A DNA stretch of 60,872 bases, the filler included. It is 8 parts of 8 records of this genome, joined end to end, with 100 filler letters (N's around TTAATTAATTAA, not from the genome) between each part and the next. Parts side by side here need not be neighbours in the genome. Positions count along the whole stretch, not along the records: positions 1 to 10,402 come from SRR31156797_38724; 7 more parts are not named here. One strand, written 5' to 3'. The position numbers and the translations under genes were made by a program. Within the stretch, counting starts at the first letter, position 1, and every line of letters starts with the position of its first letter. The notes beneath the pieces were generated by a model that was given only the letters and a program-made list of their open reading frames with translations, searched no databases and was not told where the DNA came from. This document shows positions 1 through 13,553 of this stretch, piece after piece.

Positions 1-77
1 AGACTTTTTAATGCATATTCCGGGTTTAACTAATAAAATATAACAAGAATGGGGTGATAGGCAAAAACTAGAACTAT

Positions 78-515
78 ATGAAAAATATATGGTGCACACT
101 TTTTATGGTTTGTATTTGCATCCCTTTATGGACACAAACACATATACCTGATTCTAAAACTATTATTGGTATTTGGAAACAAAGTGCAGTAATGAGTCTG
201 AATGGAAATATGGTGGAAGTAAAATCAGGGAATTACAAAATATACAATGCCGATAGTACTTACTACACAATCGTTACCAAATCATCAGGAAAAAATAATG
301 GCATTGGTCAATATGGTACTTATCAGATTAATTCTTCATCCATATTAACAGAGCACATTCTCAAACATGGGTTTAATTCTGATTTGGATGGAACGGATCT
401 GGTTGTGCAATATAAATTAATTAAAGAAAATACCCTGTTCTTAAAATGGCAGCAAAACGAAAGGTGGTTTATTGAAAAGTGGATACGAATGCCCGTATTG
501 CTGAATGGGAAATGA
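78..515 (+). CDS. Secreted DUF4488-like protein (Bacteroidota)
   Basis: N-terminal signal-like stretch; GIWKQ...GNYKIYNAD...GTY...TEHI...EKWIR pattern recalled from DUF4488 proteins. Confidence 0.55.
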   Translation: MKNIWCTLFMVCICIPLWTQTHIPDSKTIIGIWKQSAVMSLNGNMVEVKSGNYKIYNADSTYYTIVTKSSGKNNGIGQYGTYQINSSSILTEHILKHGFNSDLDGTDLVVQYKLIKENTLFLKWQQNERWFIEKWIRMPVLLNGK

Positions 516-685
516 ATCATCATTTATGCCATTGAAGATAACTGTCTGACTTCTTAAAAATCCATATTTTATATAAGGATTAAATACTGAAGCATATTTC
601 AACGCTCTTTATCCATGAGATTGAATGTTTAATCACAAATAATTCTACCGCTACTTAAGTACTTGTGTAAAAGCGTAGGAAATAA

Positions 686-693
686 TAACTTTG
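686..693 (+). promoter_or_regulatory. Bacteroidota -7 promoter element (TAACTTTG)
   Basis: Exact match to the TAnnTTTG consensus, 52 nt upstream of the ATG at 746. Confidence 0.55.
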
Positions 694-745
694 TCTGCAT
701 TTCTGTGATGTATACTCATCAGTTTTAATTATTATTCTTTTATCT

Positions 746-1837
746 ATGAACAAGATTTTATTAGTGTTGTGCTTAACCCTAATGGTCTGTGCTATATCTT
801 GTAGCAAGGAAGAAGGGGTAGGTGGAGATTCAGGAAAACAAAGCTTTCTTGATGTTTCATTATCCACAATAAACTATGCTGCCGAAAAGGATGCCAGTTT
901 AGTAGAAGTTAGTACCGATGGCGATTGGCAAGCGGCTTGCGATGCCGACTGGATTACCTTATCTGCCAAAGAAGGAGAGGAGTCTACTGCCTTTCTTATT
1001 GCCGTATCCAGCAACCTTAAATTTGCCAGAGAGGCAGTTGTAACCATTACTGCAGGTAAAAAAAGTAAAGAGATCAAGATTACGCAATCGGGGGTTTCGG
1101 TTATCGAATTTGAGATTAATGGTGTTGATTTTAAGTTTCTACCCGTTGAAGCTGATACATCTTTCTGGTTAGATGGAATGACTTATCTGGCAACACGAAC
1201 AGTTTACCTTGATAGTTATTTTATTTCAGAAACAGAAATTACCAATGAGCAGTGGAGAGCTGTAATGGGAAGTTTGCCATACGAAAATGAAAATAGCTTT
1301 CCGAAACTTCCTGTTGTGATAAATTGGAATAATATCACCAATGAGTTTCTTACCAAAATAAATACGCTCAACGATTATAACTTCCGATTACCTACAGAAA
1401 ACGAATGGGAAGTAGCAGCTAAAGGAGGTTTGAAAAGCGAGAATACAAGTTATCCGGGAAGTATTTATATTGATGAGGTGGCTTGGTATTGGGATAATGC
1501 TTATGGGCAAAGGCATAATGTAGCTACTAAAATTCCAAATGAATTAGCATTGTATGATATGGCTGGAAATGTGAGCGAATGGTGCAGTGATTGGTATCAG
1601 GAATGGACAGATGATAATCTTCCTCCATCTGAATCAACTAATCCTACAGGACCGGAAAGTGGCACGGAGAAGGTAATTAGAGGAGGTGATTTTAGAGCTA
1701 ACCAGTTTGAATACGATAGAAACAATTGTAACCCAAGCGCCCGCGATTTTCTTCCGCCGGATATTGCAACCGAAGACTTTCTGTATGATGGATTTTATCA
1801 TTATACAGGTTTCAGATTAGTAATTCCTAAAAACTAA
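746..1837 (+). CDS. Lipoprotein with BACON domain and C-terminal FGE-sulfatase (SUMF1/EgtB/PvdO, CLec-fold) domain
   Basis: Lipobox AISC; BACON-like DWITLS...REAVVTITAG...IKITQ; FGE motifs TEITNEQW, RLPTENEWEVAAKGG, LYDMAGNVSEWC, VIRGG, GFRLV. Confidence 0.9.
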   Translation: MNKILLVLCLTLMVCAISCSKEEGVGGDSGKQSFLDVSLSTINYAAEKDASLVEVSTDGDWQAACDADWITLSAKEGEESTAFLIAVSSNLKFAREAVVTITAGKKSKEIKITQSGVSVIEFEINGVDFKFLPVEADTSFWLDGMTYLATRTVYLDSYFISETEITNEQWRAVMGSLPYENENSFPKLPVVINWNNITNEFLTKINTLNDYNFRLPTENEWEVAAKGGLKSENTSYPGSIYIDEVAWYWDNAYGQRHNVATKIPNELALYDMAGNVSEWCSDWYQEWTDDNLPPSESTNPTGPESGTEKVIRGGDFRANQFEYDRNNCNPSARDFLPPDIATEDFLYDGFYHYTGFRLVIPKN

Positions 1838-1840
1838 ATT

Positions 1841-2440
1841 ATGAGAACGATATATACTTTTTTGCTATTGCTGGTAGTAACAAGTGGTAGTTTATTTTCG
1901 CAAACGGTAGTTACAATGGATATGCCCGAGCAAGCAGACAAAAAACTGCAGGTGGTTGCTCTTTTCGACGAGGAAATACCGGAAGGTGTTCCGGTTGTAT
2001 TGGGTTTAATGGGTTATGATATTAAAGGAGGTCTGGAACCTATTTCATACAGTTGGTTATTAAATGGAGAAATCATATCTACCAACGATATTGTTATTTT
2101 TACACCTTCCAAAGGTGATGATTTGGCTTTAAGTGTTACTGATAAAAATAAGTGCACATCTACCACAAGTTTCAACCTTAAGTTTGCCCGGATCGATAAG
2201 AAATCAACAACAGAAATTTCTGTATATCCTACTTTGGTTAATGATTTTGTACATATCGATTATCCAACTCAGGAGGAAAATACAGCCTTGGTTCGTATTT
2301 TTAATTCAAGCGGAAAAATAGTGTTGCAAAATACACTCAGTGAATGTAGTGATTTGAATATCAGCCTCACACCGGGAGTTTACTTTATTTCGGTGCGTGT
2401 TGGAGTTCAACATAAGGTAGAAAAAATAATTGTTCAATAA
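1841..2440 (+). CDS. Small secreted protein with T9SS type A C-terminal sorting domain
   Basis: Signal peptide; PKD/Ig-like YSWLLNG...VTDKNKC; CTD ISVYPTLVND...PGVYFISV...KIIVQ. Confidence 0.85.
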   Translation: MRTIYTFLLLLVVTSGSLFSQTVVTMDMPEQADKKLQVVALFDEEIPEGVPVVLGLMGYDIKGGLEPISYSWLLNGEIISTNDIVIFTPSKGDDLALSVTDKNKCTSTTSFNLKFARIDKKSTTEISVYPTLVNDFVHIDYPTQEENTALVRIFNSSGKIVLQNTLSECSDLNISLTPGVYFISVRVGVQHKVEKIIVQ

Positions 2441-2450
2441 ACGATAAGTC

Positions 2451-5400
2451 ATGCAATATATATATAGCGTTATAAAACGTATTTCAATCCTTTCTGTTTT
2501 GTTCGTATTCTTCATCCATACATTTGCACAGGAGAATACACCGGCACAGGATTACGCACAACAATTTTTTCAGGCTCGTCAGCAAAGCAGTTTAAAAAGT
2601 GCTTCACAAGCCATACAATTAAAACAAGTCTATCAATCTTCGGAAAAGGCAAAAACACCGTTGTATATTTTTGATAAATCAGACAAAGGATTTGCTATTG
2701 TTGCTCAAAATCAAAATAGCTACAACGTAGTTGCTTATTCAGATGACAATAGTTTTGCTGCGGATACCATACCGCCTCAGCTAATGGCTTTGCTTAACTA
2801 TTACGAGGATTCATTACAGTTTTCTCAACTTAAATCTGTAGTAAAAACGGTTGGTACACCTGTTGTAGCTCCTTTGTTAGATGAGCATAATATTGCCCTT
2901 AACCAATATGATCATCCTGAAGTAGGAGATGGAAAAACAGGTTGTGTAGCAACAGCTCTCGCACAAGTAATTAAATTTCATGCTGCAGAAAATTCGACAC
3001 TTATCGAAGGAAAAGGTTCTTTTTGTTACAACTATGAACCTTTTGGCGAGTTATGTGCCAACTTTGAAAATGCCGACTATACTTCTGACGAATTATTGTC
3101 GTATCACGTTGCTATTGCTATGAAAATGAGATTTACCCCTTCGGGCAGTAGTCCAGCTGATTATAGTGGATTAGCCAATGTAGCTGAACACTTTGACTAT
3201 TACCTTCAAGGTGGTCCCAATGAAAGTTTTTATCTAAAAAATGAGTTGGAACATAGAAGGCCTTTCTTTGCCGCGATTTATGGTGAACCAGATGGACATG
3301 CAGTGGTGGTAGATGGATACGATGATCAAGACTATTACCATTTAAACTTTGGCTGGGGAGGGCATTTTAATGGTTATTTTGTAAATGCTGATTATGTTTT
3401 TAGTACAAATTCTCAAAATAAATTTAATTCAAGCTTCAACAAAGTTTTATGTATGTCACCTACTCCGCTAATTGCAAATGAGCAAGATTCTTTAGCCTTG
3501 CTGGCAATTCATCATGCATTGGGGGGATACGAAGCAACCCATTGGGATATTTCGAAGCCTGTATGTTACTGGCCAGGCGTGCTATTGTTTAACGAAAGGG
3601 TAATTCGTTTAGATATAGAGTTGTATTCAGCTGCATTAACTGAGCAAAGTATTGCAGATGAAATAGGTGACCTACCGGAATTGCAAACCTTGACTATTTT
3701 TGGTCCTATAAATGGCGTAATTCCTGCTACTATAACCAATTTGAGTAATCTAGAAGTTTTAAGAATTCATAATGAGCAAATTTATCTTGATCAAAACAAT
3801 TATAAGGGAAATTTATCTTCATCTATACCAAGCGATATTAATAAACTAACCAAGCTTACAACGCTTTCTATTCGAAATGGATTGGAAGGTACCATACCAA
3901 ATTTATTAGGGCAGTTAAGTAATCTGAACTACATTAATTTTTATCAGGATACCACATATTTTGGGAAAGGCAAATTGACAGGTTCAATACCTGATAGTTT
4001 TAAAGATCTAAGCCAGTTAAGGAGTTTAACTATTGTCAATAATCAGTTAACAGGAAGCATACCGGCTACAATGACTGAAATGTCTGAGTTAACCGTGGTA
4101 GATTTGTCATCCAATCAATTGTCTGGTAATATTCCTGCCTTAGCAATGCCTAAACTAAGCATATTAAACCTGAGTGATAATCAATTTTCGGGTTTAAGTG
4201 ATGAAAACTGGACTTGTCCCGAATTAAAGGATCTTAACTTAAGCAATAATAATATTTCTGGTGATTTCCCTACAAGTATTAATAGTCTTTCATCTTTGGA
4301 GCATTTAAATGTTTCCTATAATCAAATTAGTTCACTACCGGAAACCATAAGTAGTTTAAAAGCTTTAAAAAATTTAGTGTTAGCTGATAACCAGTTAACA
4401 GAACTACCTAAAACAATTGGAGAATTAAGTATGCTGGAAGAGATTAATGTGGATAACAATCAATTAAAAGCTTTACCGGATGGCTTGGCTTTACCAGTTT
4501 ATCTTGAATCATTATCAGCTGCCAATAATCAAATTGCCTATGTGCCTGATAATCTTGGTCAGGTGCAAAGTCTGCAATCCTTACTGCTTGGTTATAATCA
4601 TATTCAATCCATACCTAGTGATTTGGGGAATTGCGCTGATTTGGTAACACTAGAGCTCAATGATAATCAAATTGATAGTATTCCGGCTTCATTCGAAAAT
4701 ATGCAGGAAAATACGATTGTATTATTGCAGAATAACCAAATACAAGGCGCTATTCCTGAAGCATTGATGAAGAATACCTACCATTTACGATTGGATAATA
4801 ACCGTTTTCGATACAATGATATTCCGGATTCCGAAGAATTACATCATGGATTAAGCGAGCAAAAGACTGTGGCACTTGAAAATCCAAAGGTAAAAGTGCA
4901 AATGGGAGATACTGTTAAAATTGATATTCGTACTATGGGAAAATTTACGCATCCCGACAATGAATATTACTGGCTTTACTATCCCGAATTTTTACCACGA
5001 ACTACAAAACCTGATGAATTTGAATCGTTGGAAAGCAATCCTGTTTTAGAGGTAGTTATCAACGAAGAAACCATCAATAATACATACTACTGTAAGGTGT
5101 TTAACCCTGCATCTCCTGATTATACTTTTCAATATGACGGCTCAATGCATGAAGCTCCGTGTTTATATCATTTAAATACCGACACACTTTCATTTGTTAT
5201 TGCCACAGATGAGGAAATTATTGCCGACGAATATCCGGAAGATTTTGTGACCTCCTTGGCCAACACCAATGATTATTCAATAAGCGATGGTAAAGTTACT
5301 TTGGTACCACCTTTAAAAATAAAACGAGGTACATTACTTTGGGAAGCATCTGAAGATGGTGAAACATGGGAAGGGGTTAGAGATCAAATGAGCAATCAGG

Positions 5401-7946
5401 TATTACAAAGTAATATTGAAAGCGTAGCCACAGATAAATTGGTGCTGAAACCTTTAGTGGATGCATATTATCGTTGTGGTATTGTTGAAAATGATTGTGA
5501 GACTTTATATAGTGAGGGTATTCTGGTAAAAAGCCCAGGGAATATATTATTTGATGAAGTTATTAATGTGGTTGAGGCACCACAAACCATTAGTGTGGAT
5601 AGTATAGAAGTAGTGGTTCCTCAATATTTTTATGATGAAGATTTCAGGTTAACCATTACCAAATTGGATAATGCTCCTGCGGCACCAGATACAGTAAAAG
5701 CAGGAAGTGCTTACGATATTAAGGTGAGTTTTGGAGATACCTTTGAACAGCCTTTGCTTATTAAACTAAAGAATATTAATAAATCGCTGATAAACGAAAC
5801 GAACATCAACCAGTTTGATGCAGTGTATTTCGATGATCATGCCAGAGAATGGAAATTATTTGAAGATGCGGATATTAGTTTGGTAGATAGTTCTTTGGTA
5901 TTTGTAACGCATCATTTAACAAAAGTACAATGGTGGAGTTATACCGATGAATACCGAATGGGCTTTACCGATGTGTATGAACGTAATAATATCAGGGTTT
6001 TTTATAAAGATAAGGATAGTAACTATCTGAAATTGATTTATGGCAGAGAGCAAACACCGCAATCCTGGCATGTGGCTGATGTTCCATTGATGGTTCAGGA
6101 TATTACAGAATATCTTTCAGAAGTGATGACTAAATATAAGGCTCTGGGTCTATCTGTTCCTGACGAGAAATTTAAAGTTTATGTGGAAGATTTAGGTGGC
6201 GATGATGGTGTTGTTGGTGTTTTAGGAATGATAAAAGGTTATCTGTCATTGAGTACAATACTATCCAACCCATTGGAATTACGTCAGGCATGTGCTCATG
6301 AGTATATGCACTATATTCAGGATAATTATATTTCGGCTCACGGAGGAAACTTATTTTGGATGGAAGCACATGCTACTTTATCCGACAGGATAGTTTGGGA
6401 TGACACCGTAATTCCGTTTTGTGAGTCGGAACAGTTTTTAGAGGAGGGACGAACAGGTAAAAACTATGCCTTTAACTCCTTGGCCAATTCCTGGGATCAT
6501 TGGGATATGAGCGTGCTAACCAACAATATATTTGGCGATAGACAGTATTATTATCAGGCAGGTACGTTTTTACATTATATGCGTAGTTATCGAGAAGGAA
6601 CGGCTAAGCTTGAACCTGCTGCACTGCTTAAAGAAACGCCCTGGTTACAAAGCTGGCGAACTTATTTGGCTAGTTTTGTTAGTTCCCACCTGAATTCAAG
6701 TCTGGGAGATGAGTATGAAGAATATGTGAAATATATTTTTTCCGGTAAGAACGAATTTTTTACCATGATTCATAAAGATGGTAATCCTTACACTTTTATA
6801 AAATCATATGGTAACAGAGGAAAATTTACCCATCCGGTAACTTATCGTTTTAAAGAAGGGGATGAAATGACCCAAACGGACGAGATGAATATCAAAGTGC
6901 CGTACCTGGCTTCAAAAATGGTGTTACTGGAGAATGCCAATCCAGATACAATGGTGATGGTAAAATATACTAGAAAGCACGATTATGATATCGATCACAA
7001 AGTGTATTATGGCACCTACGATGTTTTAAACAAGGAGTTGTCTTATGTAGATATTACAGACTCTACAGAGTTTAGCTTCCTGTTAGAAGCCAGAACCCGG
7101 GAAAATGCCAAAACAGAATTTAAAAATTACAGTTTTCTGCTTTTGGTGAACAAAGAATACATTGGAACCAGCAGTTTAATCAAAGATTTTAATGCTTCGT
7201 TTGACCTAACTGCTATGCCGGTGCTGGATATTGAAAGTATAGGCGCCCTTCACTTACAGACAAATGAAAATGGTAATTGGATCAAACATGCTTTTTCAAC
7301 AGAATCCGATTATATTAATTTGGGAACACCTATACCCAGTTATCTTGCATTTGCTACAGAATACGATGTGCGGATGGAAAACAAAACCACAAGTAGGCAA
7401 ATTGTAAACGATCATACTTATCAGATAAAAACGCTGTTTACAATAATTATGGATGAAGGAAAAATAGATGGCAAGATAACCTTTGTAGATAGTATTGTTT
7501 ATACGCAAACCATAGAACACGATGTGTTGAATGGTATTTTAAAACTGACAGAACGGGAACAAAAAATACGAAAACTGCATCAATTTAATGAATTTGTTAG
7601 TGGAGGTGATAGAGGAATTGTTTTGCAGAAGGTTTTTGATAAGCATATCAATACAGTTGGAGATAAAACAGAAACATTTTGGATAAAAGACTTTATGAAT
7701 TATGTTAGGCCGGTAGCTGAAGCAGAGAGTTTAAACGAAGTATACGGTAAAAACCTAATGCTCTTTAAAACGAATAATACTATGGAAACGGAAGAGGTAA
7801 TTACAAAAATAGATGCGCGTATAAGTGAAACCAAATATGATCAGGATGGGCAAGTGAGCTCTAGTATAAATAATAACTATGTAAGTACCGATTTTTCTAA
7901 TTCGAATATAGAGCTCTATTTTATCATAAAACTAAGAGAAAAGTAA
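2451..7946 (+). CDS. 1831-aa secreted multidomain protein: I69-like prodomain, C10 (SpeB-like) cysteine peptidase, LRR array, ZU5-like region, HEXXH metallopeptidase-like domain
   Basis: TGCVATALAQ (C165), GHAVVVDGY (H283), HLNFGWGG; many LxxLxLxxNxL repeats; VTHHLT; AHEYMHYIQ (1283-1287) with downstream WMEAHA. Confidence 0.85.
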   Translation: MQYIYSVIKRISILSVLFVFFIHTFAQENTPAQDYAQQFFQARQQSSLKSASQAIQLKQVYQSSEKAKTPLYIFDKSDKGFAIVAQNQNSYNVVAYSDDNSFAADTIPPQLMALLNYYEDSLQFSQLKSVVKTVGTPVVAPLLDEHNIALNQYDHPEVGDGKTGCVATALAQVIKFHAAENSTLIEGKGSFCYNYEPFGELCANFENADYTSDELLSYHVAIAMKMRFTPSGSSPADYSGLANVAEHFDYYLQGGPNESFYLKNELEHRRPFFAAIYGEPDGHAVVVDGYDDQDYYHLNFGWGGHFNGYFVNADYVFSTNSQNKFNSSFNKVLCMSPTPLIANEQDSLALLAIHHALGGYEATHWDISKPVCYWPGVLLFNERVIRLDIELYSAALTEQSIADEIGDLPELQTLTIFGPINGVIPATITNLSNLEVLRIHNEQIYLDQNNYKGNLSSSIPSDINKLTKLTTLSIRNGLEGTIPNLLGQLSNLNYINFYQDTTYFGKGKLTGSIPDSFKDLSQLRSLTIVNNQLTGSIPATMTEMSELTVVDLSSNQLSGNIPALAMPKLSILNLSDNQFSGLSDENWTCPELKDLNLSNNNISGDFPTSINSLSSLEHLNVSYNQISSLPETISSLKALKNLVLADNQLTELPKTIGELSMLEEINVDNNQLKALPDGLALPVYLESLSAANNQIAYVPDNLGQVQSLQSLLLGYNHIQSIPSDLGNCADLVTLELNDNQIDSIPASFENMQENTIVLLQNNQIQGAIPEALMKNTYHLRLDNNRFRYNDIPDSEELHHGLSEQKTVALENPKVKVQMGDTVKIDIRTMGKFTHPDNEYYWLYYPEFLPRTTKPDEFESLESNPVLEVVINEETINNTYYCKVFNPASPDYTFQYDGSMHEAPCLYHLNTDTLSFVIATDEEIIADEYPEDFVTSLANTNDYSISDGKVTLVPPLKIKRGTLLWEASEDGETWEGVRDQMSNQVLQSNIESVATDKLVLKPLVDAYYRCGIVENDCETLYSEGILVKSPGNILFDEVINVVEAPQTISVDSIEVVVPQYFYDEDFRLTITKLDNAPAAPDTVKAGSAYDIKVSFGDTFEQPLLIKLKNINKSLINETNINQFDAVYFDDHAREWKLFEDADISLVDSSLVFVTHHLTKVQWWSYTDEYRMGFTDVYERNNIRVFYKDKDSNYLKLIYGREQTPQSWHVADVPLMVQDITEYLSEVMTKYKALGLSVPDEKFKVYVEDLGGDDGVVGVLGMIKGYLSLSTILSNPLELRQACAHEYMHYIQDNYISAHGGNLFWMEAHATLSDRIVWDDTVIPFCESEQFLEEGRTGKNYAFNSLANSWDHWDMSVLTNNIFGDRQYYYQAGTFLHYMRSYREGTAKLEPAALLKETPWLQSWRTYLASFVSSHLNSSLGDEYEEYVKYIFSGKNEFFTMIHKDGNPYTFIKSYGNRGKFTHPVTYRFKEGDEMTQTDEMNIKVPYLASKMVLLENANPDTMVMVKYTRKHDYDIDHKVYYGTYDVLNKELSYVDITDSTEFSFLLEARTRENAKTEFKNYSFLLLVNKEYIGTSSLIKDFNASFDLTAMPVLDIESIGALHLQTNENGNWIKHAFSTESDYINLGTPIPSYLAFATEYDVRMENKTTSRQIVNDHTYQIKTLFTIIMDEGKIDGKITFVDSIVYTQTIEHDVLNGILKLTEREQKIRKLHQFNEFVSGGDRGIVLQKVFDKHINTVGDKTETFWIKDFMNYVRPVAEAESLNEVYGKNLMLFKTNNTMETEEVITKIDARISETKYDQDGQVSSSINNNYVSTDFSNSNIELYFIIKLREK

Positions 7947-7972
7947 TCTACAATTGATTGTAGATTGAATAT

Positions 7973-7998
7973 AAGCCGGGGTGAGAACTCCGGCTTTT
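7973..7998 (+). terminator. Rho-independent terminator
   Basis: AAGCCGGGGT-GAGA-ACTCCGGCTT hairpin with GNRA loop and T-run, just after the 1831-aa gene. Confidence 0.8.
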
Positions 7999-8017
7999 GT
8001 TATTAATAATTCTAAGC

Positions 8018-8055
8018 ATCACAGCATTTTTACAAGGCTGTGATATTTCTGTGAT
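8018..8055 (+). promoter_or_regulatory. Candidate OmpR-family regulator binding site
   Basis: CTGTGAT direct repeat with 11-bp period (8038-8055) plus an inverted copy ATCACAGC (8018-8025), upstream of the response regulator. Confidence 0.55.
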
Positions 8056-8133
8056 CTTTTTTATCTACTTTCATGTTTTATAGAAGTTGTTCAGATAGTT
8101 GGGGTATGTATATGTCTGTTTTAATGAAAGAAT

Positions 8134-8835
8134 ATGGAAAAAATATTGATAGTAGAAGATGACAAAAATATATCTGATTTACTAAGTATTCACCTTCATG
8201 ATTTAGGTTTTGAAGCAGATTGTGTTTACGATGGTAAGGAGGGATTGGTAAAGGCTTTAAATAATGTCTACAAACTTATGGTGCTGGATATTAGATTGCC
8301 AGGAATGGATGGTTTTGAGATTTGTAAAAGAATTCGTCAGGAACACAATCTAATGCCCATTATCATGCTTACTTCTAAGTCAGAAGAGATTGATAAAGTA
8401 TTAGGATTGGAGATAGGAGCGGATGATTATATGACAAAACCATTTAGTATAAGAGAGTTTGTGGCACGTGTAAAAACGATCTTACGCAGAAGCGAGATGA
8501 ATCATCAAATTTCAACATCAGATAAAGAAGAGGAATTATCCTACGATCACTTTTATATCAATATTAGCAAGCGTATTGTAAAAGTGTATGATAATCAACT
8601 GGAGCTTTCTCCAAAGGAATTTGATTTATTGGTTTTTCTGGCATCACATCCGGGCAAAACCTTTACACGAATGCAATTGTTGAGTAGCGTTTGGGGCGTT
8701 GAGTTCGAAGGATTTGAGCATACCGTTAATTCTCATATCAATCGCTTAAGAAGTAAGGTGGAAAAGAATATGAATGAGCCGGAGTTTATTTTAACAACAT
8801 GGGGCGTTGGTTACAAATTTAAAGATGATGTATAA
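8134..8835 (+). CDS. OmpR/PhoB-family response regulator
   Basis: Receiver VEDD...LDIRLPGMDG...GADDYMTKPF; winged helix NSHINRLRSK...TTWGVGY. Confidence 0.95.
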   Translation: MEKILIVEDDKNISDLLSIHLHDLGFEADCVYDGKEGLVKALNNVYKLMVLDIRLPGMDGFEICKRIRQEHNLMPIIMLTSKSEEIDKVLGLEIGADDYMTKPFSIREFVARVKTILRRSEMNHQISTSDKEEELSYDHFYINISKRIVKVYDNQLELSPKEFDLLVFLASHPGKTFTRMQLLSSVWGVEFEGFEHTVNSHINRLRSKVEKNMNEPEFILTTWGVGYKFKDDV

Positions 8836-10316
8836 TGGGGAAGAACGATAATAAGAAAAAATTTAGCCGTTTATTTTGGCAGATATCAGCCATCTTTTTA
8901 ATTGTATTGGTGGTGTTTGCAAGTATAGCAGGATATATAGCGGTGCAGGCAGCCCAAACCTATTCGGTCGAAGTGAATCAAAACCTGAACAGGGAGCTGG
9001 CCAAAAATACGGTTAATGTTATTAAGCCCGAATTCAAAAATGGAGTGGTTAATAAAGCGGCTATTGAAGATATAGTCCATTCTATGATGGTGATAAACCC
9101 AAGTGTGGAGGTGTATTTATTAAATACCAAAGGCAAGATATTGAGCTATGTTGCACCGGATAAAGTGGTCAAGTTAAAGGAGGTTTCTTTAAGTCCAATT
9201 CAGCAGTTTTTAAGCGATACACAGGGTAAGATAATTTATGGTGACGATCCCAGAAATCCGGGCGATAAAAAGATATTTTCGGCTGCTGAAGTCTGGGAGG
9301 ATAATATCCTTACCGGATATGTGTATATCGTCCTGGCTAGTCAGGAATATGTTTCTGCGTCGCATATGGTTTTGGGTAGCTATATTATGGCCTTAACAAC
9401 CAAGTCGATGGTGGCTATATTAATTGTTACAGCCATGGTGGGATTGTTTTTGCTATGGATCATTACTAAAAAGTTGAATACCATTACCAACGGAATAGAG
9501 CGTTTTCGTTCCGGTGATTTAACTTCCCGAATTCCAGTTGAAAACAAAAATGAGCTGGATAATATAGCCATTGTCTTTAACGAAATGGCCGGAACTATCG
9601 AGAAAAACATCGAAGAATTAAAAGGTATCGATAAACTCAGAAAAGAGTTGATTAGTAATGTGTCTCATGATTTACGAACGCCTATTGCTTCAATTCAGGG
9701 ATATGCCGAAACATTGCTGATTAAAAAAGACACCATTAAAACCGAAGAGAATGAAAAGTATCTGAAAGTGATTTATAATAGCTGTGAGCGTTTGCAAAAG
9801 ATGGTGGATGATTTATTTCAGCTATCAAAACTGGAAGCCAAGCAGGTAGCTTTGCATAAAGAGGTTTTCTCTATTGCTGAGCTGGTGAATGATGTGGCTG
9901 GTAAATATCGTTTGCTATCACAAAAAAAAGGTATTAGCATCAATGCATTTGTAGCTAAAGATACGCCATTGGCGGAAGGAGATATATCATTGTTGGATAG
10001 GGTTTTACAGAATTTAATAGATAATGCGATACGATTTTGTAAAGAAGGGGATTATATTAATATAGAAGTGGAAAGGGGAGATGATCAGCATGTGAAACTA
10101 AGTATTGCCGACTCAGGCGAAGGAATTAATAAAGAATCATTGCCATTTATTTTTGAACGTTATTATATAGGAGATGAATACAAACAATCTTCAGGTTTGG
10201 GTTTGGCCATTGTAAAACGAATTATGGATTTACACCATTCTACCATTGAAGTTCAGAGTATAAAAGGAAAAGGAACCCGGTTTACATTTGACTTACCTAT
10301 TGCCAATATCGCTTAA
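8835..10316 (+). CDS. HAMP-domain sensor histidine kinase
   Basis: Two TM segments, HAMP, H-box SHDLRTP, N-box NLIDNA, G-boxes DSGEG and GLGLAI; TAATG overlap with the regulator. Confidence 0.95.
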   Translation: MGKNDNKKKFSRLFWQISAIFLIVLVVFASIAGYIAVQAAQTYSVEVNQNLNRELAKNTVNVIKPEFKNGVVNKAAIEDIVHSMMVINPSVEVYLLNTKGKILSYVAPDKVVKLKEVSLSPIQQFLSDTQGKIIYGDDPRNPGDKKIFSAAEVWEDNILTGYVYIVLASQEYVSASHMVLGSYIMALTTKSMVAILIVTAMVGLFLLWIITKKLNTITNGIERFRSGDLTSRIPVENKNELDNIAIVFNEMAGTIEKNIEELKGIDKLRKELISNVSHDLRTPIASIQGYAETLLIKKDTIKTEENEKYLKVIYNSCERLQKMVDDLFQLSKLEAKQVALHKEVFSIAELVNDVAGKYRLLSQKKGISINAFVAKDTPLAEGDISLLDRVLQNLIDNAIRFCKEGDYINIEVERGDDQHVKLSIADSGEGINKESLPFIFERYYIGDEYKQSSGLGLAIVKRIMDLHHSTIEVQSIKGKGTRFTFDLPIANIA

Positions 10317-10353
10317 TTATTAACTGGTTAATCAGCACAATTATAATAATATT

Positions 10354-10370
10354 CAACTCCGCTGGAGTTG
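10354..10370. repeat. REP-like palindrome
   Basis: CAACTCC-GCT-GGAGTTG perfect 7-bp stem, 32 nt before the contig end. Confidence 0.45.
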
Positions 10371-10402
10371 TTAAATAATAACTAATCAACAATTCTATAA
10401 AT

Positions 10403-10502
10403 NNNNNNNNNNNNNNNNNNNNNNNNNNNNNNNNNNNNNNNNNNNNTTAATTAATTAANNNNNNNNNNNNNNNNNNNNNNNNNNNNNNNNNNNNNNNNNN
10501 NN
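10403..10502. other. Artificial contig linker
   Basis: 44 N + TTAATTAATTAA (stops in all six frames) + 44 N. Confidence 0.99.
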
Positions 10503-12470
10503 ACGTGATACATCAGCACCATACGTGTCCACTGCTTCCTTTAGGGTGAGTATGGGTCCCTTGGACTTGCTCATCTTCTGTCCTTCAAGTGACACGAATC
10601 CGTTCACTGCAAGGGCACGTGGCCATTTATCCTCTTCAAATATGGCAACGTGGTGGAACAGGAAGAACAACAGGTGATTTGGTACAAGGTCCTTTCCTGA
10701 TGATCTCAGGTCAACCGGATACCAGTAGTCGAAATCTGACTTGATATTGGCGATAAGGGTTTCAGGAATTCCTGTATCAATGGCTGCCTGCTGGACGGAA
10801 CCTTTTCCAAGGAGCACATAATCAAAGAGTGAGGGTTTTAACTGGTCTACGCTGATGTCCTCATTGGCAAAGAACTTGTTAGTGATATAATATGACATGT
10901 AAATGGTAGAGTCACCAAGTGATTCAATCAGCCAGTTTGTATCGAATGGAAGCAGGGTACCAAGTCCTTTCTTCCTTGCACATGCTTTGTCCTTGAGCCA
11001 GTCCACTTTGTTGTTGAACTCAACCCTGATCTCCTCAGGGATGATGTCCATGTTCTTTATGCACCTGTAGACTTTGTCCTTCCATTCGGGATTGGAATAG
11101 TTGAGGAACCACTGTCCTTTGACCATGTTAACGACACATTTGGTTCCGCAGCGGCACACTACAGGTTCACTGAATTCATAAAATATCTCTCCAATGCCTT
11201 CTTCAAGGAGGTCACGTGTGAGTATGTCCTTAATCTTTGAGACTGCAACCCCTGCATATTTGCCAGTGTTCTCTTTCAGGACACCACCATGGAACTCACG
11301 GCGATATACCATCTTTGTAGCTTCTTCTGCTTTAGGGTCTTTCTGGTTCTTCACACCAAGCTGTTCCACAGCTTCCACTGCCGGATATTCTCCGAATTCC
11401 TTAGCCTTTATGAGTGATATAAGTTCGATATCCCTGAGATCCTCAGTGATGCCATATTCTGACAGGTCACTGTCATAGAGATCTTTGAGTGCCAGATAGT
11501 CATAAGGTGCGTGAGCCGGTACACTCATGACAACACCACTGCCGTTACCGGGTTTGACAAAGGATGCAGGCAGTGTGATAATCTCATTTCCTGAGAGTGG
11601 GTTTGTGACCTTAATACCTACAAGGTCCTTTCCGGGTACGTTCTCAATGAACTCAACTGTCCTGTCGGTAAATGTGAGTTTGTAGTATGCTTCCTGGCTT
11701 ACCACCCATATTTCCTCACGTCCGTCCTTGCTGACCTTTATCTTTGCGTGTTCGATCTCAGGATTTACCCAGAGGTTGGTGACGCCAAAGATGGTCTCAG
11801 GTCTGAGGGTAGCACATGGAAGTATCATTCCGTCATACTGGAATTTAATAAAAGTGAAATCAACAATGGTTGCTTCCTCACCGTGGAGGATATCATGGTC
11901 TTCCACCGGATTGTTGTCGTTGGGACACCATTTGACGGGGTGTGCACCTTTCACGATGAGTCCCTTGTCATGGAGAAGGTTGAACTGCCATTCAATGAAC
12001 TTTTTATATGTATCATCGGTGGTTGTGAACTTGCGCCTCCAGTCGATGGAATATCCGATGGAGCGCATGGCTTTTTCAGCTTCCACGCTGAAGTAATCGA
12101 CTATCTTCTCTGGCTCATTTAGTGTAACAAGAATGTCGTCAGGTATTCCGTGCAGGCGGGAATATACATCCATTGTCTGCGGATCCTGCGTGTCAATGAG
12201 CTCTGCAAGTCCCACAATAGGTGTTCCTGTAACATGGAAACCCATAGGGTAAAGTACATTGTATCCAAGCATTCTCTTGTGCCTGGCAATAACATCTCCT
12301 ATTGTGAAAGTCCTGGTGTGCCCGGCGTGTAAATTGCCGTTTAAGTATGGATATGGGATGGTTACGAAGTATTTTTCCCTTTCATCTGGCTCAGGCTCAA
12401 ATATCCTGCTCTCATTCCAACGGCTTTGCCATTTGTTTTCTATTCCCTGTGCATCATAATCCTGTTCCAT
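10503..12470 (-). CDS. leuS: Leucine--tRNA ligase, archaeal type (3' truncated)
   Basis: PYPYLNGNLHAGH (HIGH), ATLRPET, GKDLVPNHL, KMSKS; SD GAGGTG supports ATG at 12470. Confidence 0.96.
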
Positions 12471-12745
12471 TGTTAGCACCTCACACCGGACCTAAATAAC
12501 TTCAAGAGTCCATTACATAAACTCATTCATGTATGATATTAAGTTTCTGTACCAACCTGACAGGAAATTATCCTATTTCCATAAGTCTGGATCAAACAGG
12601 ATAGTTGGTAAGAACTCTCAGGCGATACATTGATTGTTTATTCAGCAGTGTTTCAAGTGGTAATAAGTAACAACCTACATAAAGCACACGGAAAAGCAAT
12701 ATGTATCTGCTGGCAAGGATACTTGTGCACAGGTAGTGTGGCAGA

Positions 12746-13043: not shown

Positions 13044-13553
13044 ATGGAATATACGATCATAGGTGGCTCTCTATATGTTGAGAATGTACCTGAATTTCTT
13101 GCAAGGTTAAGGTCCGTCTCTTCATCTCATAATACTATTATACAGGCAATGGATGCTAACAGGATAGCCGGGGAAGACCACGTGACATTCGCTATTCACA
13201 AAGCGCTGCGTGCAATAGAAAACAACTCGAATGTGGCACACGATACCGGCATAGAGATAATGAGGTACGCTTCCGGAAAAAGACAGATAGGAGAAGCTTT
13301 TTCCATGGGTGTTCATGAAGGGCAGATGAACGTTGTTTTTGTTGTCCTCGGGGAAATCGAAGATGTAAACAATACTGTCGATGCATTGGCATCTATTGTT
13401 GAGGAAGCTCCTGTGCTGGAATATTCTGATTCTAAAAGAGCAGGTATAACCGAGCAATTCTCCATAACAGAAAAAGAGATCCAGGCTGTGGGAGAGGCGA
13501 TGATTTCTTCCCTTGTACTGGAAAGGGTAGCTCTTGTTGATGTCCTGAAATAA
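13044..13553 (+). CDS. cgi121: KEOPS complex subunit Cgi121
   Basis: IQAMDA...GEDHV...EIMRYASGKRQI...MG...LVLERVAL pattern. Confidence 0.9.
   Translation: MEYTIIGGSLYVENVPEFLARLRSVSSSHNTIIQAMDANRIAGEDHVTFAIHKALRAIENNSNVAHDTGIEIMRYASGKRQIGEAFSMGVHEGQMNVVFVVLGEIEDVNNTVDALASIVEEAPVLEYSDSKRAGITEQFSITEKEIQAVGEAMISSLVLERVALVDVLK

Follow-up and report, generated by a model that had tools for sequence, protein, structure and literature searches.

What kind of protein is encoded by the uninterrupted reading frame of 5496 nucleotides (nt) at positions 2451..7946 on the plus strand of the DNA analyzed here? The window, a stretch of 60,872 nt, joins eight parts of eight records of one genome with filler between them, and the gene lies in the part from SRR31156797_38724 (positions 1 to 10,402). 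It is a single open reading frame (ORF) with an ATG start that encodes 1831 amino acids (aa) plus a stop; nucleotide positions are those of the whole stretch, and residue numbers are those of the 1831-aa protein. An earlier sequence-only reading had described the product as one secreted polypeptide in which two protease classes flank a leucine-rich repeat (LRR) array, and "dual protease with LRR arm" is a fair first description. We found a conserved cassette to be more telling, in which a predicted self-cleaving beta-sandwich resembling the MAIN (Microbial Autoproteolysis INducing) domain is followed by a metallopeptidase domain of the gluzincin type. The best explanation as a whole, which we consider probable, is that the gene encodes an exported C10-LRR-Ig-MAIN-gluzincin protein (Ig, immunoglobulin-like) that self-cleaves into associated fragments. 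Judged from its sequence, the product is a Sec-exported modular protein, with the following parts.

2451..7946, plus strand: whole ORF, 1831 aa plus stop.
2451..2528, plus strand: signal peptide, aa 1-26; signal peptidase I cleavage between TFA and Q predicted by eye, with Gln as the new N terminus.
2541..2810, plus strand: I69 (Spi/SpeB-propeptide-like) prodomain, aa 31-120, from Pfam PF13734 and alignment to the SpeB zymogen propeptide.
2934..3380, plus strand: core of a C10 (streptopain-like) cysteine peptidase, aa 162-310, from Pfam PF01640 and SpeB alignment.
2943-2945 and 3297-3299, plus strand: C165 and H283, the C10 catalytic residues.
3477..4820, plus strand: LRR solenoid and N-terminal cap, aa 343-790, from Pfam LRR_14, LRR_4 and LRR_8.
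4848..5522, plus strand: two probable Ig-like domains, aa ~800-1024, from YYCK and YYRC motifs and Pfam matches in homologues.
5523..5951, plus strand: GAIN-B/ZU5-like (MAIN-like) beta-sandwich, aa 1025-1167, from a structure model and fold matches.
5913..5921, plus strand: H1155-L1156-T1157, predicted cis-autoproteolysis site (cut between L1156 and T1157), from fold position and conservation.
5952..6815, plus strand: thermolysin-like gluzincin domain, aa 1168-1455, from fold matches and an invariant motif.
6297-6311 and 6363-6365, plus strand: HEYMH (1283-1287) and E1305, the gluzincin motif.
6816..7226, plus strand: CUB/GOLD/jelly-roll-like beta-sandwich, aa 1456-1592, from a second structure model.
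7227..7943, plus strand: C-terminal beta-rich domain without clear relative, aa 1593-1831, from the second structure model.

The size of the protein and its mix of domains raised the worry that two or three genes had been fused through misassembly or a missed stop codon. No evidence for such an artifact was found, and we regard it as extremely improbable. The frame is intact, and a near-identical gene of 1829 aa (P0002 / L001) lies in a 5.75-Mb chromosome that carries the label uncultured Saccharicrinis sp., the sole match when genome contigs were scanned with one protein as query. The two copies differ slightly, as at the penultimate residues, so that the window derives from a very close relative and not from that record itself; the genome with this chromosome contained a single copy of the MAIN-gluzincin module. 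A database query with aa 1150-1560 (E <= 0.001) matched 86 proteins from NCBI, ENA, JGI and Logan assemblies, and all except a few partial ones were 1630-1870 aa long with the same I69/C10/LRR Pfam set; homologues were also present in 11 metagenome loci. The named homologues came from Marinilabiliaceae, Breznakibacter xylanolyticus, Prolixibacteraceae, Paludibacter and Porphyromonadaceae. This recurrence in independent assemblies, together with the intact frame, refutes a chimera or fusion artifact as far as comparison shows, and it indicates that the architecture is that of a whole family in Marinilabiliales/Bacteroidales. The earlier statement that the architecture was not recognized thus holds in the sense that it is uncharacterized, and the titles and abstract openings of the literature searched gave no account of it, but it is not a one-off. 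The positions that had been read from the sequence were all exact: the intact single ORF, C165 in TGCVAT, H283 in GHAVVVDGY, NFGWGG (299), HEYMH at 1283-1287 and E1305 in WMEAHA. The spacing needed a small correction, since E1305 lies 18 positions past H1287, as had been noted, and so 17 residues intervene, not 18.

Two alignments were used to examine conservation. The full-length alignment (n = 82) omitted the partial or duplicate rows P0002, P0021, P0022 and P0025 and the 1296-aa P0087; the distant alignment (A2, n = 49) contained 48 stand-alone proteins, which lack the C10-LRR-Ig part, and the corresponding piece of the window protein, at 19-30% identity. A 35-row alignment (A3) was also made.

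AlphaFold2 (AF2) was run on aa 1020-1560 with the 49-row alignment (model 1), with a mean predicted local distance difference test score (pLDDT) of 80.9. The region of aa 1025-1167 was modeled as a beta-sandwich with a pLDDT mostly of 82-98. Z scores were taken from a fold search (VIA) independent of Foldseek, in which the top 50 matches to model residues 1-149 were all ZU5, GAIN, FIIND or IC97/CASC1 N-terminal domains. The best match was ankyrin ZU5 (Z 12.2, 126 residues aligned over model residues 6-149, root-mean-square deviation [rmsd] 2.9), followed among GAIN domains by CD97 (Z 11.8), BAI3 (10.2) and CELSR1 (9.8), with GPR126, GPR97, GPR110, GPR56 and latrophilin-3 also present; the FIIND domains of CARD8 (Z 9.1) and NLRP1 (7.7) and the ZU5 domain of UNC5b were matched as well. 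At the level of sequence the likeness was faint: ZU5 was found below threshold in 2 of the 49 relatives (17 bits vs 21), and the A2 profile matched the IC97/CASC1 N-domain weakly (E 0.026) across the strand that carries HLT.

The tripeptide H1155-L1156-T1157 (model residues 136-138) falls in the turn that joins the final pair of strands in the sandwich (E129-136 and E139-144). Position 1155 was H in all 82 full-length and all 49 distant sequences; position 1156 was L in 81 and F in 1 of the full-length sequences, and L in 47 and F in 2 of the distant ones; position 1157 was T in all 82 full-length sequences and T in 42, C in 5 and S in 2 of the distant ones. The third position therefore holds only T, S or C, the nucleophiles possible in an N-O or N-S acyl shift. 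A motif of the form H-[LFIVM]-[TSC] was found 90-175 residues before HEXXH in 181 of the 222 proteins retrieved (HLT in 154, HFT in 10, HLS in 9, HLC in 5, HFS in 2 and HFC in 1), and the other 41 are mostly fragments, judged from their lengths. The conserved H-[LF]-[TSC] is, as a sequence pattern, the signature of cis-autoproteolysis. Five chains of cleaved receptors (N-terminal fragments of GPR56, 5kvm_A, and of GPR97, GPR110, Gpr126 and latrophilin-3) aligned with the model as far as L1156 (model residue 137), and the residue of GPR56 paired with L1156 was L382. The P1' residue of GPR56 is given as T383 in a preprint (bioRxiv 10.1101/2025.09.16.676693), and the cleavage residues of latrophilin-1 are given as H836-L837/T838 (Arac et al. 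2012, PMC3321182). The registry with the cleaved receptors thus places L1156 at P1 and T1157 at P1'. These results suggest that the protein likely cleaves itself between L1156 and T1157.

The same sandwich could instead be a spacer or binding domain like the ZU5 domain of ankyrin or UNC5, so that the LRR-Ig arm would aim two proteases held on one covalent chain. This is the view that the sequence-only reading had taken, and two facts favor it: ankyrin ZU5, which does not cleave, is the closest individual match to the fold (Z 12.2), and the window protein shows no GPS or ZU5 match at the sequence level. We consider it unlikely, since H-[LF]-[TSC] is invariant in 131 aligned sequences down to 19% identity with only nucleophiles at the third position, and since it sits exactly at the GAIN scissile turn, where a spacer would have no reason to keep it.

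Downstream of the sandwich, the question was whether the HEYMH sequence marks a real metallopeptidase. A bare HEXXH occurred in 6.25% of 2000 shuffles of the window protein and is weak evidence alone, so conservation and fold became the deciding questions. H1283, E1284, H1287 and E1305 were identical in 82/82 full-length and 49/49 distant sequences, and this conservation lifts the motif, as a matter of sequence statistics, far beyond chance. Among the 181 motif-bearing proteins, 108 have the Glu 18 positions past the second His, and in 53 others the distance is 19-21 positions. Y1368 was conserved in both alignments and could be a transition-state-stabilizing residue. In model 1, HEYMH lies on the helix 1274-1290 and E1305 on the following helix 1301-1308, and these are the modeled equivalents of the active-site and glutamate helices of gluzincins. 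Foldseek returned lugdulysin (M30, E 1.6e-6), M1 aminopeptidases and an M61 peptidase as its top matches. In the independent search lugdulysin (7bb8_A) scored Z 18.2 over 275 aligned residues (rmsd 3.7), and all others scored Z 13.4 or less, among them M1 aminopeptidases (Z 12-13), thermolysin (M4, 11.3), LasB (10.1) and collagenases (M9, 9-10). The gluzincin-type domain proposed past the LRR array, with HEXXH and Glu on consecutive helices of a thermolysin-like fold, was thus borne out by the model.

Its family was less easily named. The profile matched the minimal gluzincin MJ1213 weakly (E 0.17) over the HEXXH helix. DUF5700, a "putative zinc dependent peptidase", was matched by 5 of the 49 relatives, one of them above threshold. 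Pfam at E <= 10 gave for aa 801-1831 a spurious DUF257 match alone and no peptidase family, and M30 was matched neither by that part of the window protein (E <= 10) nor by 48 relatives (E <= 0.05), in searches whose HMMER filters can hide very weak matches. The papers found in a literature search for lugdulysin were clinical studies or reviews, none of them structural. With no curated peptidase family matched, the domain is assigned as a gluzincin by fold and motif, in a new family rather than as a member of M30.

Based on the model, we predict with good confidence that the domain is zinc-dependent and active. A thermolysin-like fold can be reused, as in TAF2, and the HEXXH domain might accordingly be a pseudo-peptidase or binding module, with C10 alone working as a protease. 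The fold matches did include TFIID TAF2 chains (6hqa_A, Z 10.4; 5fur_I, Z 8.4), the window protein matches no curated peptidase family, and the Glu spacing is one to two residues shorter than in M1 peptidases and thermolysin. Such a module is nevertheless quite improbable, since the four residues of the catalytic and ligand positions are the same in 131/131 sequences, as is Y1368 downstream, and such residues are normally lost in pseudo-enzymes.

To determine how widely the two domains occur, an exhaustive phmmer search was carried out with aa 801-1831 against 1.84 billion representatives (E <= 0.001). The 151 matches comprised the fused family and many stand-alone proteins of about 550-1100 aa; the cluster representatives retrieved numbered about 105 for the fused type and 70 for the stand-alone type. 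In the stand-alone proteins, the stretch matching aa ~1025-1440 starts about 30-60 residues from the N terminus, right after the signal; Pfam scans of 25 of them gave no family over the MAIN-gluzincin stretch and found TIG, PKD, FGE-sulfatase-like or Fib_succ_major domains toward the C terminus. MAIN and gluzincin together are, by this sequence distribution, a mobile module. A hydrophobic run followed by Cys within the first 45 residues was found in 48/70 stand-alone proteins, many of them continuing as C-K-K-D-D or similar, and most are thus predicted lipoproteins in which the N-terminal lipid is the probable anchor. With such an anchor the enzyme would sit on the releasable C-terminal side. 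Two stand-alone proteins (P0127 and P0185) begin with a GYF_2 domain or zinc ribbons and not with a lipoprotein signal, which points to variants that are anchored through a membrane segment and keep the N terminus in the cytoplasm. Another (P0143, 807 aa) carries a HINT/intein-type domain (aa ~553-693) after MAIN-gluzincin, giving two self-processing domains per chain.

The constant pairing of the two domains, whose motifs are 120-143 residues apart within the module, also fits a different role, in which the MAIN-like domain is a self-cleaving prodomain that makes the mature N terminus of the metallopeptidase and controls its latency, with no relation to force release or to the C10-LRR part. 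A prodomain at the N terminus is common among secreted metallopeptidases. In the model, sandwich and catalytic domain are separate units, and we hold this role to be somewhat unlikely.

In the mechanism that we favor, the order of parts is signal peptide, I69, C10, LRR, two Ig-like domains, MAIN-type sandwich, gluzincin, CUB-like domain and C-terminal beta domain. After export the MAIN-like domain would likely cut its own chain between L1156 and T1157, through an N-O acyl shift in which H1155 would serve as base and the hydroxyl of T1157 would attack as nucleophile, as in GAIN and MAIN domains. Since the cut would fall in a beta-turn, the last strand (T1157-S1163) would stay inserted in the sandwich, and the product would be a non-covalent heterodimer. 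Its N-terminal fragment of ~1130 aa would comprise the C10 zymogen and the LRR-Ig binding arm together with the larger part of the MAIN domain, and its C-terminal fragment of 675 aa would begin with the last strand and bear the metalloprotease, in which H1283, H1287 and E1305 would hold zinc, E1284 would act as catalytic base and Y1368 may stabilize the transition state. The LRR-Ig arm would bind a target, and separation of the fragments could release one of the proteases, be it from its partner protease or from the cell. That the two-fragment complex serves in this way to release or regulate a protease is a speculative suggestion.

A bolder version, which we put forward as doubtful, takes MAIN-gluzincin as a self-cleaving releasable protease cassette and the whole protein as the counterpart, in bacteria, of an adhesion receptor built as LRR-Ig-GAIN, with a protease output instead of a seven-transmembrane (7TM) domain. 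LRR-Ig-GAIN is the domain order of ADGRA-type receptors. The metalloprotease would then hang by one beta-strand, ligand binding or a pull on the LRR-Ig arm would extract that strand, and the proteases would part, one of them being switched on or released. The stand-alone lipoproteins would mirror the MAIN proteins of Gram-positive bacteria, with the lipid anchor N-terminal and the freed enzyme C-terminal.

Several observations weigh against the favored explanation. Some ZU5 domains, such as that of ankyrin, do not cleave. Pfam found neither a ZU5, GPS or GAIN domain nor a metallopeptidase family in the window protein, and a PDB sequence search with aa 801-1831 gave no match. The C10 domain is divergent, with 81.5 bits vs 185-242 in ordinary Bacteroidota C10 peptidases. 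Pfam and NCBIfam detected no C-terminal sorting domain (CTD) of the type IX secretion system (T9SS; Por_Secre_tail or CHU_C) in the window protein, and there is no lipobox either, which deprives the force-release model of a demonstrated anchor. In the MAIN proteins described in the main text of the MAIN preprint (see below), the MAIN domain is directly followed by a sortase, S-layer or wall anchor, whereas the window protein has 675 residues after it and no recognized anchor. The precomputed domain lists of the 86 homologues likewise contained no T9SS CTD, NCBIfam gave only LRR-driven effector matches far below cutoffs, and a protein atlas gave no usable match for aa 1590-1831 and only leads below 0.9 for aa 1020-1460.

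The N-terminal half of the protein was examined by profile searches and sequence alignment. The N-terminal sequence MQYIYSVIKRISILSVLFVFFIHTFA, followed by QENT, resembles a signal peptidase I signal, as judged by eye; Gln at the new N terminus is the Bacteroidota "Q-rule". Inhibitor_I69 was matched at 31-120 (61.3 bits vs a cutoff of 25) and Peptidase_C10 at 162-310 (81.5 bits vs a cutoff of 26). The alignment of residues 24-310 with SpeB in its zymogen form (1dki, E 3.9e-16) brought both catalytic motifs, that of Cys and that of His, into register, and SpeB TGCVATA, GHAFVIDG and WGWGG were paired with their counterparts in the window protein. C165 was present in 81/82 full-length sequences (one gap) and H283 in 82/82. 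By sequence the C10 domain is a SpeB-like zymogen with predicted cysteine peptidase activity, and the proposal of a single secreted polypeptide with such a zymogen at one end was upheld.

Several Pfam LRR families matched between about 399 and 790, and a stretch that reads like an LRR N-cap begins at about aa 343. The repeats are 23-24 residues long and plant-receptor-like, with a conserved Asn ladder (N600...N762), and the best PDB sequence matches of the array were plant LRR receptor kinases (E to 1e-74). The following 225 residues or so (aa ~800-1024) contain two Y-x-C motifs, and W841, C881 and C1016 are invariant. Pfam gave no match to this region in the window protein itself; near-threshold Ig_2/Ig_3 matches were found in homologues directly after the LRRs, and the region is probably two Ig-like domains.

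A second AF2 model (aa 1450-1831, pLDDT 91.6) covered the part after the metallopeptidase. Its first sandwich (aa ~1456-1592) gave middling matches to CUB, GOLD and CPE-C domains (Z 8.0-8.7), and Foldseek returned CUB/GOLD/CPE-C-like matches only, all to this sandwich. The last domain (aa ~1593-1831) had weak matches only, to outer-membrane barrels (Z 6.7-7.6). An outer-membrane barrel or autotransporter-like anchor was rejected on account of these scores, the charged and polar character of the strands and the lack of a C-terminal aromatic residue. The picture of two proteases flanking an LRR array was therefore too simple: the Ig-like pair and the GAIN/ZU5-like domain intervene between the LRRs and the metalloprotease, and ~375 residues follow the latter. 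The ligand-sensing or substrate-targeting role that the sequence-only reading gave to the dual protease is a hypothesis.

The big gene is preceded on the same strand by two others.

746..1837, plus strand: predicted lipoprotein of 363 aa with BACON and FGE-sulfatase-like domains, from Pfam and a lipobox-like AISC followed by SKEE.
1841..2440, plus strand: protein of 199 aa that combines a PKD-like N-domain and a T9SS C-terminal sorting domain, the latter from Pfam Por_Secre_tail (E 6.5e-9).

The two upstream genes are separated by 3 nt, and 10 nt lie between the second and the big gene. We compared 11 metagenome loci that contain a full or nearly full relative of the big gene at 32-57% identity by segment. 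A gene of the 199-aa CTD type was adjacent to the big gene in 10/11 of them and the BACON/FGE gene in 7/11, the misses being loci in which the contig ends nearby or in which the CTD gene alone was seen downstream. The gene order indicates that the upstream pair and the big gene are a three-gene unit, and the lipoprotein and the CTD protein probably work with the big protein on the same substrate or anchor it. When a complex of aa 1450-1831 with the BACON/FGE lipoprotein and with the N-domain of the CTD protein was predicted, the score was 0.24 vs a mark of 0.34, which speaks neither for nor against binding. One stand-alone protein (P0168) has an FGE-sulfatase-like domain fused after the gluzincin domain, and others have PKD or TIG there, so partners that are in separate genes here occur in cis elsewhere.

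An OmpR-type response regulator and a HAMP/HisKA histidine kinase are encoded 187 nt downstream of the big gene (8134-10316, plus strand); they were present in 0/11 related loci and were rejected as partners. A DUF4488 protein of 145 aa is encoded upstream of the three-gene unit (78-515, plus strand). Elsewhere in the window, an ORF of 169 aa (13044-13553, plus strand) matched almost the entire Pfam profile of CGI-121, the kinase-binding subunit of KEOPS (E 5.6e-15); the CGI-121 family is known from archaea and eukaryotes, and its presence in a Bacteroidota genome is unexpected. A class I tRNA-synthetase (LeuRS-like) ORF with a GTG start (10455-12479, minus strand, 674 aa) had no match to an anticodon-binding domain at E <= 0.01 and may have a mis-set start or be a split or truncated gene.

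The organism is an uncultured marine or sediment relative of Saccharicrinis, and the interest of the protein lies in protein or glycoprotein foraging, not in disease. The gluzincin family is unannotated, having no Pfam or NCBIfam model, and its nearest solved relative is a staphylococcal M30 peptidase. The findings would extend MAIN domains to Gram-negative Bacteroidota and couple them directly to a C-terminal enzyme. If cleavage takes place, the system could show how autoproteolysis controls a protease and could bear on whether GAIN-type release predates animals.

Compared with known C10 proteins (SpeB, interpain A and Bacteroides Bfp), the window protein shares an I69/SpeB-type prodomain followed by a papain-like catalytic domain, with the TGCVATA (Cys), GHA..DG (His) and (F/W)GWGG motifs all present. 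It differs from ordinary Bacteroidota C10 proteins, which are 480-960 aa long with CUB, PKD, CARDB or BspA-LRR spacers and 6/10 of which, from related loci, carry a T9SS CTD, in having 1500 further residues and no such CTD. Like M30 peptidases (hyicolysin and lugdulysin) and other gluzincins, it has a thermolysin-like fold whose active-site helix carries HEXXH and whose next helix supplies Glu as the third ligand, but its domain is only 12-15% identical to lugdulysin and is preceded by the MAIN-like sandwich, not by a conventional propeptide. A few stand-alone relatives resemble DUF5700 or DUF6782 over a strand and the HEXXH helix (P0156, 27.4 bits with DUF5700 vs a cutoff of 25); these matches are limited to 5/49 and 2/49 members, respectively, and to ~45-90 residues, and the window protein is not matched.

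According to the main text of a May 2026 bioRxiv preprint by Brogan & Rudner (10.64898/2026.05.12.724683), bacterial MAIN domains self-cleave at HX(S/T), as in YfkN between F and S of HFS, and the fragments stay associated. It counts MAIN domains in 15,000 proteins, mainly of Bacillota with "Bacteroides" also mentioned, and virtually all of these have a signal peptide, adhesion or enzyme domains (LRR and Ig among the partners), MAIN and a cell-surface anchor. ZU5, GPS and Nup98 autopeptidases had been united by Zhang et al. 2012 (PMC3482391), who noted ZU5 domains in large bacterial surface proteins. The window protein has the same beta-sandwich fold as MAIN, GAIN-B and ZU5 domains (Z 10-12), an H-hydrophobic-(T/S/C) motif at the last-strand turn and, like MAIN proteins, a large secreted form with LRR and Ig adhesion domains. 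It differs from adhesion GPCRs in lacking the helical GAIN-A subdomain and the GPS disulfides, and from published MAIN proteins in that gluzincin, a CUB-like sandwich and a beta domain without clear relative follow MAIN and in that the probable anchor of the stand-alone relatives is on the opposite side (N-terminal lipid). This enzyme-side arrangement with an N-terminal anchor in stand-alone forms is absent from the discussion in the main text of the MAIN preprint, in which lipoprotein, peptidase and metalloprotease occur 0 times; its supplementary tables may list the family. All parts of the protein are of known kinds, and what is new beside these systems is their combination, the unannotated peptidase family and the placement of a self-cleaving domain before an enzyme.

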